Below the pieces are notes generated by a model that was given only the letters and a program-made list of their open reading frames with translations, made no database searches and had not been told where the DNA came from. Both the position numbers and the translations under genes were made by a program. From assembly GCA_964475385.1 (NCBI GenBank), contig CAYYWV010000001.1, positions 1 through 61,287 on the forward strand: 61,287 bases of DNA, given 5' to 3'. Numbering within the stretch: the stretch's first letter is position 1; each line of letters begins with the position of its first letter. Of the stretch, positions 18,583 through 26,603 are shown piece after piece. This DNA is from an uncultured Alphaproteobacteria bacterium (GTDB lineage: Bacteria > Pseudomonadota > Alphaproteobacteria > JAAXGF01).

Positions 18583-19360
18583 TCCCCCTCTGCCCGCCGT
18601 GACCGAGACTCCGGCCCCGCCCGCAACCACCGAGGACAGGCTGCTCGATGGTCGGGTGCGGCTGATCCAACCGGCGAAAGGCTTCCGCGCGGCGATCGAT
18701 TCGGTCCTGCTCGCGGCCGCCGTTCCGGCGCGGGCGGGGGAAACCGTGCTCGACGTCGGCGCCGGCGTAGGCGCGGCCTCGCTCTGTTTGGCCGCGCGGG
18801 CGCCCGACTGCCGCATCTTCGGCATCGAGATCGCCCGCGATCTTGTCCGGCTCGCGGGCGAGAACGCGCGTCTTAACGGTTGGAACCAGCGGGTTACGAT
18901 CATGACGGGCGACCTGACGAACCCGCCGCCCCGGCTTGCCGCCGGAAGCTTTCAGCACGTCATGGCCAACCCGCCTTATCTTGCGCCCGAGCGGGCCGAT
19001 CCCTCGCCGGTCGCGGCCCGGGCGACGGCGGCGGTCGAAGGGCGCGGCCGGCTCGCCGATTGGATCGGCTTCTGCCTTGCGATGCTGGCCCCGCGCGGCA
19101 GCGTCACCATTATTCACCGCGCCGATCGTTTGGCCGAGCTTCTCGCGCTTCTCGGCCCGCGCACGGGCGGGATCGTCGTTTTTCCCTTGTGGCCCGGCCG
19201 CGACGGCGACCGCCCGGCCAAAAGAGTGATCGTTCAGGCGCGCAAAGGCTCGTCCGCGCCGCTCAAGCTTCTGCCCGGCCTGGCTCTCCACGACGCCGCC
19301 GGGAGCTATACCGACGAAGCCGAGGCGATCCTGCGCCACGGGGCGGCGCTTGCCCTATGA
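18554..19360 (+). CDS. SAM-dependent N6-adenine-type methyltransferase (NPPY motif; TrmN6/YfiC-like)
   Basis: SAM motif VLDVGAGVGAASL and catalytic MANPPY. The start is uncertain: the ATG at 18554 overlaps the previous gene by 29 nt, and a GTG near 18599 is possible. Confidence 0.7.
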   Translation: MPGSRSPTADPPLPAVTETPAPPATTEDRLLDGRVRLIQPAKGFRAAIDSVLLAAAVPARAGETVLDVGAGVGAASLCLAARAPDCRIFGIEIARDLVRLAGENARLNGWNQRVTIMTGDLTNPPPRLAAGSFQHVMANPPYLAPERADPSPVAARATAAVEGRGRLADWIGFCLAMLAPRGSVTIIHRADRLAELLALLGPRTGGIVVFPLWPGRDGDRPAKRVIVQARKGSSAPLKLLPGLALHDAAGSYTDEAEAILRHGAALAL

Positions 19361-19402
19361 CAGCGAAGGGAAAGCGGGAAAGGGTTTGAACCCGACCGAG
19401 GT

Positions 19403-20851
19403 TTAAGCGGCCGGGCGGGTGTCGAGCTCGGACTGGGCGCTGTCTGCCGGCCGGGATGAAGGGGTCTGGGCCGAGCTCGGCCAGAAGACGACGCGGACCG
19501 TCTGGAGGAGAATAAGAATGTCGAGCATGATGTTGAAGTTCTTCATGTAATAAAGATCATACTCGAGCTTGCGCCGAGCGTCCTCGACCGAAGCGCCGTA
19601 CGGGTACTTGATCTGGGCCCAGCCGGTGATCCCCGGCTTCACCCGATGCCGTTCCGCGTAATAGGGGATCTCCTTGGCGAGCTGCTCGACGAAGTAGGGG
19701 CGCTCGGGCCGCGGCCCGACGCAGCTCATCTCCCCTTTGAGGACGTTGATGACCTGAGGGATCTCGTCGATCCGCGTCTTGCGAATGAAGGCGCCGACCC
19801 GCGTGATGCGACCGTCGTTCTCCGTCGCCCAGCGCGGCGTGCCATCGCTTTCGGCGTCGAGGGCCATGCTCCGGAACTTGAGAAGCATGAACCGCCGTCC
19901 GCCAAGGCCGACGCGCTCCTGGCGGTAGAAGATCGGCCCTGGGCTGTCGAGGCGAATCGCGATCGCGGTCGCGATCAGAAGCGGCAGGGTGAACAGAAGG
20001 AGCGACGCGCTCACGGTCAGATCGCAAAGGCGCTTGAGCGCGGTCCTGAGCAGGTTGTCGGAGAAACCGTCGGAGAAGATCAGCCAGCTCGGGTTCAACG
20101 ACTCGATATCGACCCGTCCGGTCTCGCGCTCCCAGAAGGTCGAGTACTGAATCACATTGAGGCCGTTGAGCTTGCAAGCGAGCAACGCCTCGGTCGGAAG
20201 CTGACGGCGGCAGTCGTCGACCGCGACGAGAATCTGGTCGACATGACGCTTTCGGGCGAAGGCGGCGAGATTGGGGACCGCCGAAATCACCCGTGTCTGC
20301 GAGACGCAAAGGGGTTCACCGTCGCCGGTCGCCAGGAACCCGACCACGGTAAAGCTTGCGCCATTCTGAGCTTCGAGCGCCTCGATCCGCGCCGCCCGTT
20401 TCCCCGCCCCGATGACCAAGACGCGCTGTTTGAAGCGGTCGAAGCGAATGAACCGTTCGGCGACGAGGCGGGAGGTCGCGATCCCGACCGAGGCGAGCAT
20501 GAGCGCGATTAAAAGCGCGCTCCGCCAGATCGTGATCGTTGGAAACAGGTAGAAGATCAGCGAGAAGACGATCAGCGCTAGCACCGTAGCGGTGGCAAGC
20601 CGAATAAAAACGGCGCGCAGGTTGTGGAGGAACTCGCGCTGATAAAGCCCGAGCGCAAGCAATATCACCCCGAAGACGCTGGTGAAGAGCGCGATCTCGG
20701 GCAGGAACGAAGCCGTTTCCCATGTCATGTTGGCGGCCACGACATATCGGATGAGAAGGGCCGCCGTGATCGCGGCGAGGAGAATCGCAAATTCGCCCGC
20801 GACGAGCAGCAGGATCGAGATCGGGATGTACTGTTTGAAGACCCGTATCAT
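19403..20851 (-). CDS. Polyprenyl-phosphate glycosyl-1-phosphate (priming) sugar transferase, exopolysaccharide / PEP-CTERM-associated type
   Basis: N-terminus MIRVFKQYIPISILLLVAGEF with about 5 TM helices. C-terminal bacterial sugar transferase domain (LLKFRSM, RIDEIPQVINVLKGEMSCVGPRPERP, KPGITGWAQI). The 128 upstream codons of the track ORF are Arg-rich and look non-coding. Confidence 0.85.
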   Translation of the reverse strand: MIRVFKQYIPISILLLVAGEFAILLAAITAALLIRYVVAANMTWETASFLPEIALFTSVFGVILLALGLYQREFLHNLRAVFIRLATATVLALIVFSLIFYLFPTITIWRSALLIALMLASVGIATSRLVAERFIRFDRFKQRVLVIGAGKRAARIEALEAQNGASFTVVGFLATGDGEPLCVSQTRVISAVPNLAAFARKRHVDQILVAVDDCRRQLPTEALLACKLNGLNVIQYSTFWERETGRVDIESLNPSWLIFSDGFSDNLLRTALKRLCDLTVSASLLLFTLPLLIATAIAIRLDSPGPIFYRQERVGLGGRRFMLLKFRSMALDAESDGTPRWATENDGRITRVGAFIRKTRIDEIPQVINVLKGEMSCVGPRPERPYFVEQLAKEIPYYAERHRVKPGITGWAQIKYPYGASVEDARRKLEYDLYYMKNFNIMLDILILLQTVRVVFWPSSAQTPSSRPADSAQSELDTRPAA

Positions 20852-21235
20852 ACCGCGCGCGCCATGTGCGCCCCACTCTCCAGCGTCGTCATCTCCCGCG
20901 TCTTCGGCTCTATTTCTGGCGGGACGACCGAATGCCGAGGCGACAGACGTCGCCGGCTCGACATATCGCGATCTTCTCGACAGTCGAAAACCGGATCGAA
21001 CACGCTGTGCGCCTCCCCCTCTACTGCGCAAGCTCTTCAGGCCGTATGGCCTCTTAAACGCGAAACGATGCCGCCGGCGCTCGATTCCGCGCGCGGCTGA
21101 CAGTGTGGTCTTTCCAACCTGGCGAGGTCCGTATCCGTTCCCGGTATCGGGAGCGTGTGTCCTCCGTCCCTCGTGCCTTCGGGGCCTACGCCCGATCGCT
21201 TCGTCGAGCGCCCTCCGGCTTCTCAACGAAAGCAA

Positions 21236-21251
21236 TGCAAGAATCGCGCCA
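21236..21251 (-). promoter_or_regulatory. Sigma-54 (-24/-12) promoter TGGCGCGATTCTTGCA upstream of the sugar transferase gene
   Basis: The reverse complement of gcaagaatcgcgcca-type + strand sequence reads TGGCGCG-ATTC-TTGCA. It matches TGGCACG-N4-TTGCW at all but one position. Confidence 0.6.
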
Positions 21252-21324
21252 GACGACGGCTTTGGCCTGATTTCAAGAGGTTATGTCTTGGCGCCGACTG
21301 GAATGATGCCGAGGTTCCGCAAAA

Positions 21325-21341
21325 CTGTAAAGTATTCCGAC
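21325..21341 (-). promoter_or_regulatory. Repeated 17-mer GTCGGAATACTTTACAG (candidate enhancer/UAS), 74 nt upstream of the sigma-54 promoter
   Basis: One of three copies of GTCGGAAWANTTTACAR in the window (see 21535 and 23702). Confidence 0.45.
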
Positions 21342-21534
21342 TCATGGGCTGTCGGGATGTCTATTCTTGATGGCAATAAATACAGAGAAAGCATATAGAT
21401 ATGGAACTTATTCGATGTGTTCTCATATTAACCATATCTGAGAGGAGATGGCGTCCTGGCGGCCCAGGAACGGCTGCGGGCGCGAATCGGGGTGCGGGTC
21501 CAATCAGTTAGACCGATTGGGTCGATCCCTGGAA

Positions 21535-21551
21535 TTGTAAAATTTTCCGAC
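21535..21551 (-). promoter_or_regulatory. Repeated 17-mer GTCGGAAAATTTTACAA (candidate distal enhancer/UAS)
   Basis: Third copy of the motif, same orientation as the 21325 copy, about 285 nt upstream of the minus-strand sigma-54 promoter. Confidence 0.4.
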
Positions 21552-21574
21552 ACCTGGGCGATGCGGCGCGTGTT

Positions 21575-22192
21575 TTACGAGGTCGGCTTCGCGATTTGGA
21601 TGTGATTCACCACCCGCTCGACCCCGTCGGTCTTCCGGATTTGGGCGAGCACGCGTTCGAGCTCGCTGCGGTCCCGGGCGGCGCCGATCAGATAGACGAC
21701 CCCGTTGACCGAGCGCACCCGGTAGTTCGCGGACCGAATGCGTTCGTCAAGGAACAGCGCCGACTGGATCGTCTTCTCGATCAGGACATCGTTGACGAAG
21801 CCCATGATCCCGTTGCCGTCGGCCACCTGGATGTCGTTGATGAGCTCGCGCACGCCTTCGATGCCGGCGGCGAGCGTGGCCGCCCGCGCCTTCGCCGCCG
21901 GGGTTTCGACGCTGCCCAGAAGCAGCACGCGCCCCTTGTAGACCACCGTCGAGACGTTCTTGAACAGATCGATGTCGGCTTCGAACAGGGCCTGGTTGAG
22001 CTTGATCTTGATCGCGTTGTCGCTGATCACCTCGTCGGCGGTCCGCTTTTCGCTTGCCGTGTACCCGGCGTCGGCCACGAGCCCGGTCGCGGTCGAGAAC
22101 GGAACGCAGGCGCCCGCCATCGGCGCGAGCGCGAGCGCGACGAGAAGCATCCGGAATTTCTTAACAGAATTTTTCCCCATCTGGCCGACCAT
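21575..22192 (-). CDS. BON-domain (OsmY-like) periplasmic/lipoprotein, two BON repeats
   Basis: Signal/lipobox-like MLLVALALAPMAGAC. Two BON repeats (VVYKGRVLLLGSVETP..., VNGVVYLIGAARD...). The start is ambiguous: TTG 22219, or ATG at 22192, 22180 or 22150. Confidence 0.75.
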   Translation of the reverse strand: MVGQMGKNSVKKFRMLLVALALAPMAGACVPFSTATGLVADAGYTASEKRTADEVISDNAIKIKLNQALFEADIDLFKNVSTVVYKGRVLLLGSVETPAAKARAATLAAGIEGVRELINDIQVADGNGIMGFVNDVLIEKTIQSALFLDERIRSANYRVRSVNGVVYLIGAARDRSELERVLAQIRKTDGVERVVNHIQIAKPTS

Positions 22193-22311
22193 CACGTAAG
22201 GTTGTTTGCGTTTTTTCAAGGCCTGGACCGCAAATGCGGCGATCGCATCGCGGAACCGGGAAGGGATCGTAGCGAAAGAGGCCTGAAAGCAGGGTATCGA
22301 AGAGGTGCGAC

Positions 22312-22884
22312 ATGGCCGAGGTCAGACGTTGGCTCGTTCTCATCCTTCTCGCCGCCGGGCTGGCGCTCGGCCCAGGCTTGCGCGCCGGCGCGGCCGAGGA
22401 TGGCACCTTCGACAAGAACGAGATCTACGACGAGGCCGCTCGGTTCTTCGGCGAAACCACCGAAGGGCTCGCCAAGGTCATCGAGAAGATCTTCGAAGAC
22501 GAAGGACGCCCCAACGCCTTCATCACCGGCGAAGAGGGATCGGGCGCGATCGGGATCGGCCTCCGCTACGGCAAGGGCAAGCTCCATCGCAAGGGCGGTC
22601 CCGCCGTACCGGTCTACTGGCAGGGGCCGTCGATCGGCTTCGACGTCGGCGGCGACGCCTCCAAGGTCTTCGTGCTGGTGTACAACCTCGAACGCACCGC
22701 CGATCTCTTCCAGCGTTTCCCGTCGGTCGACGGGCGGCTCTACTTCATCGCAGGCGTCAGCGCGAACATCCAGCGCGCGGGCGAGATTACGCTGGCGCCG
22801 ATCCGCACCGGCGTCGGCCTGCGCGCGGGCGCGAACGTCGGCTACACCCACTACACCCGCAAGCATTCCTGGGTGCCGTTTTGA
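22312..22884 (+). CDS. DUF1134-family secreted protein (EipA-like envelope-integrity protein)
   Basis: Signal peptide, then ITGEEGSGAIGIGLRYGKGKL, YWQGPSIGFDVGGDASKVFVLVYNL, PIRTGVGLRAGANVGY. Colinear with DUF1134 proteins as I remember them. Confidence 0.75.
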   Translation: MAEVRRWLVLILLAAGLALGPGLRAGAAEDGTFDKNEIYDEAARFFGETTEGLAKVIEKIFEDEGRPNAFITGEEGSGAIGIGLRYGKGKLHRKGGPAVPVYWQGPSIGFDVGGDASKVFVLVYNLERTADLFQRFPSVDGRLYFIAGVSANIQRAGEITLAPIRTGVGLRAGANVGYTHYTRKHSWVPF

Positions 22885-22940
22885 TCGGAATTTGATCGGC
22901 GCGCAAGAGGCCATCGCGCACAAGTTCTCGTTTCAATCAG

Positions 22941-22964
22941 GAGGGCGCGGCGCGCCGCGCCCTC
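22941..22964. terminator. Perfect 24-nt GC palindrome after the DUF1134 gene (terminator-like hairpin)
   Basis: gagggcgcggcg/cgccgcgccctc. No clear U-tract follows. Confidence 0.4.
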
Positions 22965-23152
22965 GGCATCCGGAAGCCTACTCAAGAACAATTAACCTAT
23001 AGTTTACTTCCACACAGATCATTAATTGTATTTTTTATGGCATTTCAACTTAATTTTCAACAATAAATATTGATGTTGTTCTTTCTTCCTGGGCATGGCG
23101 GACAAGGACGCAGCTTGGCCCTCCGACGGCCGGACGCGAGACGGATGAGCGA

Positions 23153-23452
23153 ATGAGAGACGGGGCGGAAACCGGCCTCGGCCCGGGCGCGGGCGCGCGC
23201 GGAACGCTTACGAAGGCCGTGCGCGGGCCGCTGCTCGCCGGCGGTCTTGCGCTTCTCGCGCTGCTCGGGGCCTGCGCGTCCGGGGTGGTCTCGGCCGATT
23301 CGTCTGGGATCGCGATCGAGCACGACGAGACCAGCCCCGACCCGGCGATCGCCGCCGACAAGCACTGCGCGCAGTTCGGCAAGAAGGCGCAGCTCATCGC
23401 GGTCGAGCCGATGACCTTCGTCAGCCAGATCTACTACTTCGGCTGCGTCTGA
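23153..23452 (+). CDS. Small putative lipoprotein
   Basis: Lipobox LALLALLGAC followed by a roughly 55-aa mature part ending in YYFGCV. No family recognised. The start is uncertain. Confidence 0.4.
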   Translation: MRDGAETGLGPGAGARGTLTKAVRGPLLAGGLALLALLGACASGVVSADSSGIAIEHDETSPDPAIAADKHCAQFGKKAQLIAVEPMTFVSQIYYFGCV

Positions 23453-23701
23453 TACCTGCGGCTGCACTGGACGAGAGGGCAAGCCTGCTTCCCCGGCGCC
23501 GCGCCTCGGCTTCGACTTCAAAAGCCGGTCCCCCGGTTGCCTGGGGCCCGGGCGCCGGGAGGCGGGTGTCGAAATCCTTTACAAGGGGTGGTGTCGCGTC
23601 GGACATGCCGCGGCCGCAAATAACCATACAAAAATAAAAGAGAAAAGCGCTGTCCGCTGCTCTCGAGGGGGATTTTCCTCCGGCGACTGGGGCAATGGAC
23701 T

Positions 23702-23718
23702 GTCGGAAAAGTTTACAG
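23702..23718 (+). promoter_or_regulatory. Repeated 17-mer GTCGGAAAAGTTTACAG (candidate enhancer/UAS), 62 nt upstream of the sigma-54 promoter
   Basis: Same motif as 21325 and 21535, oriented towards the PEP-CTERM gene. Confidence 0.45.
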
Positions 23719-23779
23719 GTTCTCTCGTCCTTATGCGACGTTCTTCGATAACCCTTTGAGAAAAAAGAGAGACCAAAAT

Positions 23780-23795
23780 TGGCCCGATTCTTGCA
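23780..23795 (+). promoter_or_regulatory. Sigma-54 (-24/-12) promoter TGGCCCGATTCTTGCA upstream of the PEP-CTERM protein gene
   Basis: Read directly as ttggcccgattcttgca. One mismatch to TGGCACG-N4-TTGCW. It lies 155 nt before the ATG at 23950. Confidence 0.6.
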
Positions 23796-23949
23796 AGGGT
23801 TAATGTGGGGGCTTTGTCCGCGACGAAGGGCACTCCGGGAGCGGGGAGAGAGAGCAGGGAGAACGCCCGTCGGGTGAAGGCTTCGCTTCGAAACGATGGC
23901 AATGGCCGGGTCCATGGCGAGAGACAATGATCTTTCGGAGGGAACGGAT

Positions 23950-25059
23950 ATGCGTGCGACGAGGATTTTTAGAGACCTGCGTGTATTCGTCGGGGTCGTC
24001 TTGGGGGCGTTCATCGCCCTACCTGCGCAGGCAGGGCCCATAGACGCCGCCGCCGATTGGCTTCTTACTCAGCAAACGGCCTCGGGCGGATTCCCTTGGA
24101 CGCCGGGGGGCGCGGTCACCAACAACACGCAAGGCGCTACGGCGCTCGGGCTCATCGGCGCGTATCAGGCGACCGGCAACGCCGCCTATCTCAATGCGGC
24201 CAAGAGCAACGGCGACTACATTTTGTCGCCCGCTTACAGCCATTATTCGGACGGCGATCCGCGTTTCTCGACTCACGATCCGATGTTTCTTGAGGTTCTC
24301 AGCGCGGTGACGGGCGATTCGAGCTACGCCGATTTCACGCAAACCAACTTCTGGGACAAGCTGTCGGCCGGCGTGTACGGGGAAGGAAACGACCTCGATG
24401 CGGCGGGCTTCGCCAACGCCGTGATCACCGGGCGAACGAACCAGGGAATCGTCGAGCTTTCGCCTTGGGATTTGTCCAAGGCCGCGATCGGCGCTCACAT
24501 CGCCGGCGAGACCGCGGCCCGAGACGCCTTCATGAACGGCATTCTGACCGGCCTCGAATCGACGACGGCGAGCGACAACACCTATGATCTTTTCGGTCTT
24601 TCGGGCGCCATCTGGGCCTCGGCCGTGACCGGGATCGACCTCGACCCGACCGCCGGGCGCTGGGCGGCTGCGAACTCGACCGCCGATCTCGCCGCCGAGT
24701 TGATCAACTACATCAACGCCGACGGCGGATGGATTTGGGGCACGGCCGCCGATATTAACGATCTGTCCAACGGGGACGTCCAACAGACCGCGTTTTCGAT
24801 CCTGGCCCTGGCCGCGCTTGATCCGGCGGCTTACGCCTCTCAGATCAGCGGCGGCAGGGCTTTCATCGCGGGGTTGCAGCAGCCGTCCGGACAAATCCTG
24901 ATCTATCCGGGCGCCGCGCCCGGAGCCTCGGGAAGCGTCGAGGTCCAAGGCGAAGCGCTCTACGCCCTGGCGGTTACGGTCCCTGAGCCCGCGACGGTCG
25001 CGCTCTTCGTCGTCGGCCTTGCGGGTCTCGGTTTCCTGCGGCGTCGCGGCGACGCCTGA
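23950..25059 (+). CDS. PEP-CTERM-anchored secreted protein with prenyltransferase/squalene-cyclase-like (alpha/alpha toroid) repeats
   Basis: Signal peptide. Repeats of the type DWLLTQQTASGGFPW, YINADGGWIWG, AGLQQPSGQILIYPG. C-terminal sorting signal VPEPATVALFVVGLAGLGFLRRRGDA. The ATG at 23950 is preceded by GGAGGG. Confidence 0.8.
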   Translation: MRATRIFRDLRVFVGVVLGAFIALPAQAGPIDAAADWLLTQQTASGGFPWTPGGAVTNNTQGATALGLIGAYQATGNAAYLNAAKSNGDYILSPAYSHYSDGDPRFSTHDPMFLEVLSAVTGDSSYADFTQTNFWDKLSAGVYGEGNDLDAAGFANAVITGRTNQGIVELSPWDLSKAAIGAHIAGETAARDAFMNGILTGLESTTASDNTYDLFGLSGAIWASAVTGIDLDPTAGRWAAANSTADLAAELINYINADGGWIWGTAADINDLSNGDVQQTAFSILALAALDPAAYASQISGGRAFIAGLQQPSGQILIYPGAAPGASGSVEVQGEALYALAVTVPEPATVALFVVGLAGLGFLRRRGDA

Positions 25060-25087
25060 GAGGGTCCGTCTCCAAAGGGAAGGGCGG

Positions 25088-25117
25088 CCTTATCCGTTCC
25101 GCCCTTATCCGTTCCGC
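25088..25117. repeat. Perfect 15-bp tandem duplication (ccttatccgttccgc x2)
   Basis: Read directly, in the spacer between the PEP-CTERM gene and tRNA-Asn. Confidence 0.9.
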
Positions 25118-25172
25118 AGTGTCGCCGGGCCTTCGCCGGCGCTCTCGCGCTGGGCCGAAGGCGAACTGCGAA

Positions 25173-25199
25173 GGGGTTGGATCGCGGCGATCCAACCCC
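25173..25199. terminator. Long perfect inverted repeat (13-nt arms) between convergent PEP-CTERM gene and tRNA-Asn; bidirectional terminator candidate
   Basis: ggggttggatcgc-g-gcgatccaacccc, 10 nt from the tRNA 3' end. Confidence 0.5.
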
Positions 25200-25209
25200 T
25201 CGCGAAATC

Positions 25210-25285
25210 TGGCTCCCCGGGCCGGACTCGAACCAGCGACCTAGTGGTTAACAGCCACCCGCTCTACCAACTGAGCTACCGGGGA
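25210..25285 (-). tRNA. tRNA-Asn (anticodon GTT)
   Basis: Folded by hand: acceptor TCCCCGG/CCGGGGA, D-arm GCTC/GAGC, anticodon arm GGTGG-CTGTTAA-CCACT, T-arm GCTGG-TTCGAGT-CCGGC, encoded CCA. Confidence 0.9.
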
Positions 25286-25424
25286 TCGGGGCGCGCATAA
25301 CGCGCGCGCTTGCGCGGGCTATATAGCAAAGCCTGTTCGCCCGCACCAGCCTTTCATCTATCCATCTATAGCCCCGTGGGCCATGATCCGTAAGAACTGG
25401 GCCCGAGGGAGGGAAGCGGCGACC

Positions 25425-26603
25425 ATGACGATCGACATCGACCGCGCGCGGCGCGAGACGCCGGGGTGCGAGGCCGTCGTCCACTTCAATAACGCGGGCG
25501 CGGCGCTGATGCCGGCGCCGGTGCTGGAGGCGGTGATCGGCCATCTTCGGCGCGAGGCGGAGATCGGCGGCTACGAGGCCGCGGAACATGCGGGGCGTCG
25601 CCTGGAAGGGGTCTATCGGTCGGCCGCCCGGCTTCTCAACTGCGAGGCCCGCGAGATCGCCGTCGTCGAGAACGCGACCCGGGCCTGGGACATGGCGTTC
25701 TACGCGCTTTCGTTCCGCCCCGGAGACCGCATTCTCACCTCGCGCGCCGAGTACGCGAGCAACTACATCGCCTTTCTTCAGGTGGCCAAGCGCACGGGCG
25801 CGATCGTGACGCCGATTCCCGACGACGCCGACGGGGGGCTGTCGATCTCCGCCCTCGCCGATATGATCGATGAGAAGACGCGGCTGATCGCGATCACCCA
25901 CGTGCCCACCAACGGCGGGCTCGTCAACCCGGCCGCCGAGGTCGGGCGTCTCGCGCGCGCGGCCGGCGTTCCTTTTCTGCTCGACGCCTGCCAGTCGGTC
26001 GGCCAGATGCCGATCGACGTGCGCGCGATCGGCTGCGATATGCTCTCGACCACCGGGCGGAAGTACCTGCGCGGCCCGCGTGGAACCGGCCTGCTCTACG
26101 TTCGTCGCGAGATGATCGAACGGCTGGAGCCGCCGTTCCTCGATCTCCACGCGGCGACCTGGACCGCGCCCGACCGCTATGCGGTGCGCGACGACGCCCG
26201 CCGGTTCGAGAACTGGGAAGGCAATGTGGCCGGCAAGATCGGCCTCGGCGTCGCCATCGACTATGCGCTCGGCTGGGGACTCGATGCGATCGCCGCGCGC
26301 GTGCGCGCGCTCGCCGAACGCCTGCGCGCCGAACTCGCCGCCATTCCCGGCGTGCGGCTGCGCGATCTCGGCCGAGAGCGTTGCGGGATCGTGAGCTTCG
26401 AAGTCGCGGGCCTCGCGCCGGACGCGGTGCGGCGCGCGCTCGCCGAAAAGCGCATCAACGTCGAGACCTCGTCGGCCGCGGCGACGCGGCTCGACATGAC
26501 CGCTCGCGGGCTCGAATGCCTGGTGCGCGCCTCGGTTCACTACTACAACACCGACGACGAGATCGCGCGGTTGTGCGAGGCGGTCGCTTCCCTTCGCCGT
26601 TAA
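25425..26603 (+). CDS. Class V aminotransferase / cysteine-desulfurase-like PLP enzyme
   Basis: [31 protein letters not shown], and the PLP-lysine segment [19 protein letters not shown]. Confidence 0.75.

Follow-up and report, generated by a model that had tools for sequence, protein, structure and literature searches.

What is the function of a short, AT-rich sequence that recurs between the genes of a contig with a G+C content of 67.6%? The stretch analyzed here, 61,287 bp of a metagenome contig from an uncultured alphaproteobacterium (CAYYWV010000001.1, hereafter the window), carries a 17-mer that a first-pass annotation had found three times. Each copy pointed toward a sigma-54 promoter, and the annotation proposed that the copies are upstream activator sites for an enhancer-binding protein of a PEP-CTERM regulon. 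That proposal is supported by the analysis below. The 17-mer is the published PEP-CTERM box, "motif 1" of Haft et al. 2006 (BMC Biol 4:29, PMC1569441), for which the same prediction was made, and is therefore a rediscovery of a known element. The window holds four copies, which very probably act as upstream activator sequences of two sigma-54-dependent promoters through the mechanism proposed for the response regulator PrsR. One promoter precedes a PEP-CTERM protein gene, and the other precedes epsB2, the gene for a priming glycosyltransferase.

The pattern GTCGGAAWANTTTACAR has exactly three matches in the window, at 21325-21341 and 21535-21551 on the minus strand and at 23702-23718 on the plus strand, and was matched in 0 of 100 dinucleotide-preserving shuffles. 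The coordinates and strands are those given in the first-pass annotation, as is the count of invariant positions among the three exact copies (14 of 17). Its statement that the motif occurs nowhere else in the window holds for the exact pattern, but a fourth, degenerate copy, TGTCGAAATCCTTTACA, found once mismatches were allowed, had been missed. The reading frame of the repeat also needed adjustment: the repeat is real, but the informative block, TGTCGGAAWWYTTTACA over 147 sites of other organisms, lies one base to the left, and the last position (R) of the original frame has no information across those sites. In the shifted frame, the pattern TGTCGGAANNNTTTACA is an imperfect dyad of the form TGT-N11-ACA; over the 147 sites its three central positions are W, W, and Y, and the positions flanking it are uninformative. 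When up to two mismatches are allowed, the window contains four matches to it, where 0.05 would be expected. Because of the fourth copy, the boxes form two pairs, all of them intergenic, and each pair aims at one of the two best sigma-54 promoters of the window (Table 1). These are the two promoters that had been named originally, and they are the only matches to TGGC-N7-TTGCW in the 61 kb, both lying downstream of a proximal box.

Table 1. Boxes, predicted promoter elements, and genes of the two regions, in window coordinates (IHF, integration host factor)
Feature	Sequence or product	Position	Strand	Remarks
Proximal PEP-CTERM box (motif 1)	TGTCGGAAAAGTTTACA	23701-23717	+	Exact match; 62 nt to the T of TGGC
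Distal degenerate box	TGTCGAAATCCTTTACA	23567-23583	+	Same orientation as proximal box, 134 nt upstream of it
IHF-like site	TAACCCTTTGAGA	23749-23761	+	One mismatch to YAANNNNTTGATW; starts 31 nt before TGGC
Sigma-54 promoter (-24/-12), PEP-CTERM gene (motif 2)	TGGCCCGATTCTTGCA	23780-23795	+	TGGC-N7-TTGCW match
PEP-CTERM protein gene	369 amino acids, signal peptide, C-terminus VPEPATVALFVVGLAGLGFLRRRGDA	23950-25059	+	TIGR02595, PF07589
Distal box before epsB2	TGTCGGAAAATTTTACA	21536-21552	-	210 nt upstream of proximal epsB2 box
Proximal box before epsB2	AGTCGGAATACTTTACA	21326-21342	-	74 nt to TGGC
IHF-like site	TAACCTCTTGAAA	21271-21283	-	Starts 32 nt before TGGC of epsB2 promoter
Sigma-54 promoter, epsB2	TGGCGCGATTCTTGCA	21236-21251	-	TGGC-N7-TTGCW match
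epsB2 leader	~373 nt, predicted start site to start codon	20852-21224	-	From predicted promoter
epsB2	TIGR03013 family XrtA/PEP-CTERM system priming glycosyltransferase	19403-20851	-	TIGR03013 537 bits (cut-off 393); PF02397, PF13727

Spacer length was counted between the end of TTTACA and the T of TGGC. The resulting 62 and 74 nt agree with the distances first reported between the end of the 17-mer and the GG of the -24 element, and the distal epsB2 copy, placed about 285 nt upstream, lies 283 nt from TGGC when measured from the 17-mer. The spacer of the PEP-CTERM promoter belongs to the main class of 61-65 nt, and that of epsB2 belongs to a class one helical turn longer. Relative to the predicted start sites, the box centers fall at about -97 and -231 at the PEP-CTERM gene and at about -109 and -319 at epsB2. 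Between box and promoter, the IHF consensus WATCAANNNNTTR has a predicted one-mismatch site at both window promoters, at the position that is conserved across sites. The site before the PEP-CTERM gene continues into the A-tract that had been noticed there (~23760-23767).

Motif 1, as described in 2006, is a 17-nt sequence with the 3' end TTTACA that is sometimes repeated. It is followed, after a mean of 62.8 nt (standard deviation 10.6, range 32-92), by the 17-nt motif 2, which fits the sigma-54 -24/-12 consensus (-24 GG/-12 GC). Of 167 proteobacterial PEP-CTERM genes, 99 had it upstream, as did a few other genes; it was never seen within coding regions, and its phylogenetic profile across 13 proteobacteria coincides exactly with those of PrsK, the NtrC/AtoC-like activator PrsR (TIGR02915), and PrsT; motif 1 was predicted to be the PrsR site (PMC1569441). 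In the window, all four copies match TGTCGGAANNNTTTACA, with its TTTACA end, at no more than one mismatch, both spacers lie within the published range around ~63 nt, and both promoters are in non-coding DNA upstream of a TIGR02595 gene or of another gene of the system. As in the published region, a large intergenic region precedes a single PEP-CTERM gene and occasional sites occur at other system genes; nothing essential differs. Added here are the orientation bias and, as modest refinements of an element class that is not new, the quantized spacers, the positioned IHF-like site, and the epsB2 target with its double box and 373-nt leader. Neither IHF nor phasing is mentioned by Haft et al. (PMC1569441), and a literature search, in which not all journals were covered, returned no paper linking PEP-CTERM promoters with either; the double box before epsB2 was likewise not described in the papers searched. 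For Aquincola, transcription of a PEP-CTERM gene was reported to be RpoN-dependent and the -24/-12 start site was mapped; the authors mention an upstream "previously predicted enhancer sequence," and epsB2 adjoins prsK-prsR there (PMC9850573).

To place the box in a wider context, public genomes (one per species) were scanned with TGTCGGAANNNTTTACA alone, with no promoter required, which gave at least 120 loci. Among the 130 box matches listed, 28 had a strict TGGC-N7-TTGC promoter within 150 nt downstream in the same orientation, against three with the promoter on the opposite side and 0 in both control configurations. The three outward-pointing boxes (L059, L074, and L119) have their strict sigma-54 promoter at 64, 86, and 97 nt, so the preference for orientation toward the promoter, though strong, has exceptions. 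When one mismatch to the promoter was tolerated within 135 nt downstream, again in the same orientation, the link was seen for 38 of 77 Proteobacteria-like matches versus 4 of 53 in other phyla, where the matches look like background. The first downstream open reading frame (ORF) usually ends VPEP...RRR. TIGR02595 was matched by 21 of 36 downstream ORFs, including that of the window, and the others were VPLPA-CTERM or PEPxxWA-CTERM proteins, four ORFs cut by the end of the locus, and one sugar transferase. Double boxes are also not peculiar to the window: 46 extra upstream boxes in the same orientation occur within 400 nt of 150 proximal boxes versus 1 in the control region, and one other locus has a box-to-box spacing of 135 nt, close to that of the window PEP-CTERM gene. 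Two contigs labeled as non-Proteobacteria, a Nitrospira metagenome-assembled genome (MAG; L041) and an Actinomycetota MAG (L067), carry a box, a phased promoter, and a PEP-CTERM ORF, and the outward-pointing box at 64 nt is from a Solirubrobacterales MAG (L059). Either these contigs are mis-binned, or the PrsR system extends beyond Proteobacteria, contrary to the 2006 statement.

The spacing between box and promoter is quantized. A metagenome scan for box-N{45,75}-promoter yielded 117 distinct sites, with spacers of 51-53, 61-65 (mode 62-64), or 73-75 nt, none of 55-58 or 68-72 nt, and a single one of 66-67 nt. The phasing is strong (Rayleigh p ~1e-28 for a 10.5-bp period), and further classes occur at ~86, ~96, and ~106 nt in the genome set. 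The offset of one helical turn between the two window promoters, on which the first-pass annotation had remarked, is therefore a general property, with spacers at ~52, 63, and 74 nt. The IHF-like element is positioned as well. A match to YAANNNNTTGATW with no more than one mismatch was present in 15 of 36 genome-set spacers versus ~2.1 in shuffled spacers, starting 31-33 nt before TGGC in 14 of the 15. In the metagenome set, 54 of 117 sites had such a match, and 41 of 57 best-match position counts were at 30-33 nt before TGGC.

We then compared the epsB2 region with three syntenic loci of relatives (L122, L123, and L124), whose EpsB2 proteins are 57-74% identical to that of the window and whose gene order, EipA-(BON)-epsB2-methyltransferase-DUF2007-polyprenyl synthase, is shared. 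In a four-way alignment of the upstream regions, the main conserved islands were the two boxes, the IHF-like block, and the promoter, together with ATATGGTTAA. The boxes are 210, 211, 209, and 213 nt apart in the window, L122, L123, and L124, respectively, and the corresponding spacers to TGGC are 74, 64, 64, and 75 nt; spacer length thus switches by one helical turn between loci. The promoter 15-mer TGGCGCGATTCTTGC is identical in all four regions, the IHF-like block is kept in all of them, and the A at position 1 of the proximal box of the window is shared with L122 and L123. The comparison of orthologous intergenic regions, proposed together with the original observation, thus found boxes 209-213 nt apart, IHF-like block, and promoter conserved in every relative. 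The additional island, ATATGGTTAA (window 21428-21437, minus strand; alignment columns ~251-262), is present in three of the four regions (window, L122, and L123), between the distal box and the proximal one, and could be a site for another factor. The genome that contains L124 (GCA_046758065.1) has a second epsB2 paralogue, followed directly by PrsK (776 bits), PrsR (712 bits), and PrsT (L126:6001-13389). In comparisons with the AtoC and NtrC models, this PrsR reaches 413 and 380 bits, respectively.

From these data, the following mechanism can be proposed. PrsK would phosphorylate the NtrC/AtoC-type response regulator PrsR, and phosphorylated PrsR would bind the 17-bp imperfect dyad TGTCGGAAWWYTTTACA (TGT-N11-ACA) centered near -97 and -109, with the more distant box, located 134 or 210 bp upstream of the first, probably aiding assembly of the active oligomer. 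IHF may bend the DNA at the IHF-like site, which keeps a distance of 31-32 nt to the -24 element. The activator on its box would then contact sigma-54 RNA polymerase at TGGCSCGATTCTTGCA and use ATP to open the promoter, and both the PEP-CTERM surface protein gene and the gene for the exopolysaccharide priming glycosyltransferase would be switched on. The isolated PEP-CTERM gene and epsB2 are probably co-regulated in this way, though both are outside the main exopolysaccharide locus.

Several points weigh against this model. None of PrsK, PrsR, and PrsT was found in the 61-kb window when ~40 ORFs were compared with NCBIfam. The literature search returned no electrophoretic mobility shift, footprint, or chromatin immunoprecipitation result for PrsR, and the search for sequencing runs from the source, which bears on promoter use, returned DNA runs only (microbial-mat/hydrothermal-vent metagenomes) and no RNA runs. 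Classical enhancer-like activator sites do not usually show an orientation bias as strong as that of the box. Finally, the 677 nt upstream of the epsB2 paralogue beside prsKRT contain neither a box nor a sigma-54 promoter, so not every gene of the system is under box control. In the same genome, the stand-alone epsB2 paralogue that is syntenic with the window carries the double box.

Some of these points leave room for a different sigma-54 activator in place of PrsR, such as some other member of the NtrC family that regulates the exopolysaccharide locus. The assignment to PrsR rests on co-occurrence, its gene is not in the window, and the literature search returned no demonstration of its binding. 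Such an activator is nevertheless unlikely, given that the motif and PrsK, PrsR, and PrsT are reported to have exactly the same phylogenetic profile across 13 proteobacteria (PMC1569441) and that a relative with the same epsB2 box architecture encodes PrsKRT. The box might instead be an architectural site of the IHF or Fis type, since its center is AT-rich and it lies upstream of sigma-54 promoters. We consider this very improbable: the box does not fit the IHF consensus, an IHF-like element distinct from it stands at a fixed place between box and promoter, and the box is confined to PEP-CTERM-type genes and to lineages with PEP-CTERM systems.

The resemblance of the TTTACA end to TTGACA raises the question of whether it is the -35 hexamer of sigma-70 promoters, which would imply constitutive or alternative transcription. 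At the minus-strand proximal copy, TTTACA is followed after 17 nt by CATCAT, a weak match at 9 of 12 positions. The promoter and terminator scan gave this one match versus 0.8 expected from shuffles, the other three copies have no -10 partner, and what the 147 sites keep as a partner of the box is a sigma-54 element at a distance of 52, 63, or 74 nt, not a -10 box at 17 nt; the sigma-70 reading was rejected and has hardly any probability left. Least probable of all is a generic dispersed repeat, either a repetitive extragenic palindromic (REP) sequence or one resembling a miniature inverted-repeat transposable element, or a chance recurrence. The 17-mer is indeed short, AT-rich, and repeated in intergenic DNA, but there are just four copies in 61 kb, all upstream of the two sigma-54 promoters, and there is no information beyond the 17 positions. 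Across genomes, its orientation is fixed, its distance to sigma-54 promoters is phased, and PEP-CTERM genes lie downstream. REP-like scatter at random positions and orientations, which the first-pass annotation had named as the outcome that would overturn its proposal, is excluded by the genome and metagenome scans, as is chance recurrence. The activator-site interpretation, in contrast, gains from the promoter link at 38 of 77 matches, from the phasing, and from the PEP-CTERM genes downstream.

If PrsR is the binding protein, as the co-occurrence suggests, how would it act? NtrC (NRI) at glnAp2 and AtoC at atoDAEB are response regulators that combine a receiver domain with an AAA+ sigma-54 interaction domain and a Fis-type helix-turn-helix; they bind dyad sites of ~17-20 bp, usually two or more, at distances of ~100 bp upstream or greater, and work through DNA looping. 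The PrsR box system is like both in regulator type, dyad sites, and upstream position. The NtrC site differs in sequence (TGCACC-N5-GGTGCA). The NtrC enhancer is also functional in both orientations and over variable distances, whereas the PEP-CTERM box is strongly asymmetric and nearly always points toward the promoter. Judged by sequence statistics, the box thus departs from the classical enhancer, with its independence of orientation and helical face and its variable distance: 28 boxes point toward the promoter and 3 away, and spacers cluster at ~52, 63, and 74 nt. The PEP-CTERM promoters, with their predicted IHF site, share with NifA at nifH and XylR at Pu the order of activator site, IHF site, and -24/-12 promoter, together with dependence on the face of the helix. 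The NifA site, TGT-N10-ACA, has the same outer half-sites as the PEP-CTERM box, TGT-N11-ACA, with another spacing. In contrast to NifA and XylR, PrsR is a response regulator rather than a GAF or V4R sensor, and IHF binding is here a prediction from sequence.

These comparisons raise the possibility, to which we give even chances, that PEP-CTERM promoters are stereospecific rather than free-looping enhancers. The suggestion draws on the asymmetric box in one orientation, the restriction of spacers to three helical-turn classes (~52, 63, and 74 nt), the constant distance of 31-32 nt between the predicted IHF site and the -24 element, and the second box of epsB2, which is kept ~20 helical turns upstream across divergent relatives. 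If so, PrsR would act from a rigid geometry set by IHF, and the architecture could be a strict genome-wide predictor of the PrsR regulon, the priming glycosyltransferase included. In many environmental and wastewater bacteria, the formation of flocs and of the biofilm matrix rests on the PEP-CTERM/exosortase system under PrsK-PrsR control, and recognition of the box would allow the PrsR regulon to be read directly from sequence, metagenome contigs included.

Examining the genes of the window, we found that the 369-amino-acid PEP-CTERM protein scores 23.3 bits against TIGR02595 (cut-off 16) and 24.8 bits against PF07589 (cut-off 20.7). At the equivalent position, the syntenic relative L122 carries no PEP-CTERM gene; that of the window may therefore be a local insertion. 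The start codon of epsB2 is at 20851, and its 482-amino-acid product is the same as the called protein P0001. Its ~373-nt leader is unusually long, and those of relatives are ~360 and ~240 nt; the folding z-score of the window leader is -0.8, indicating unremarkable structure. An Rfam scan of 19000-25500 at permissive thresholds returned only a transfer RNA gene (25213-25285, minus strand), which lies directly downstream of the PEP-CTERM gene, and a chance-level nuoG match, with no known RNA element in either leader. Between epsB2 and the PEP-CTERM gene are genes for a BON-domain lipoprotein and an EipA-family protein and a 99-amino-acid lipoprotein-like ORF; ~40 other ORFs are housekeeping or unrelated, and the NCBIfam comparison revealed neither XrtA nor EpsH among them. 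Two sharp AT-rich islands stand out from the mean composition of the window. One, at 23000-23099 (30% G+C), is between the EipA-family gene and the 99-amino-acid ORF, with no box or sigma-54 promoter nearby, and the other, at 21350-21449 (35% G+C), sits between the two epsB2 boxes.

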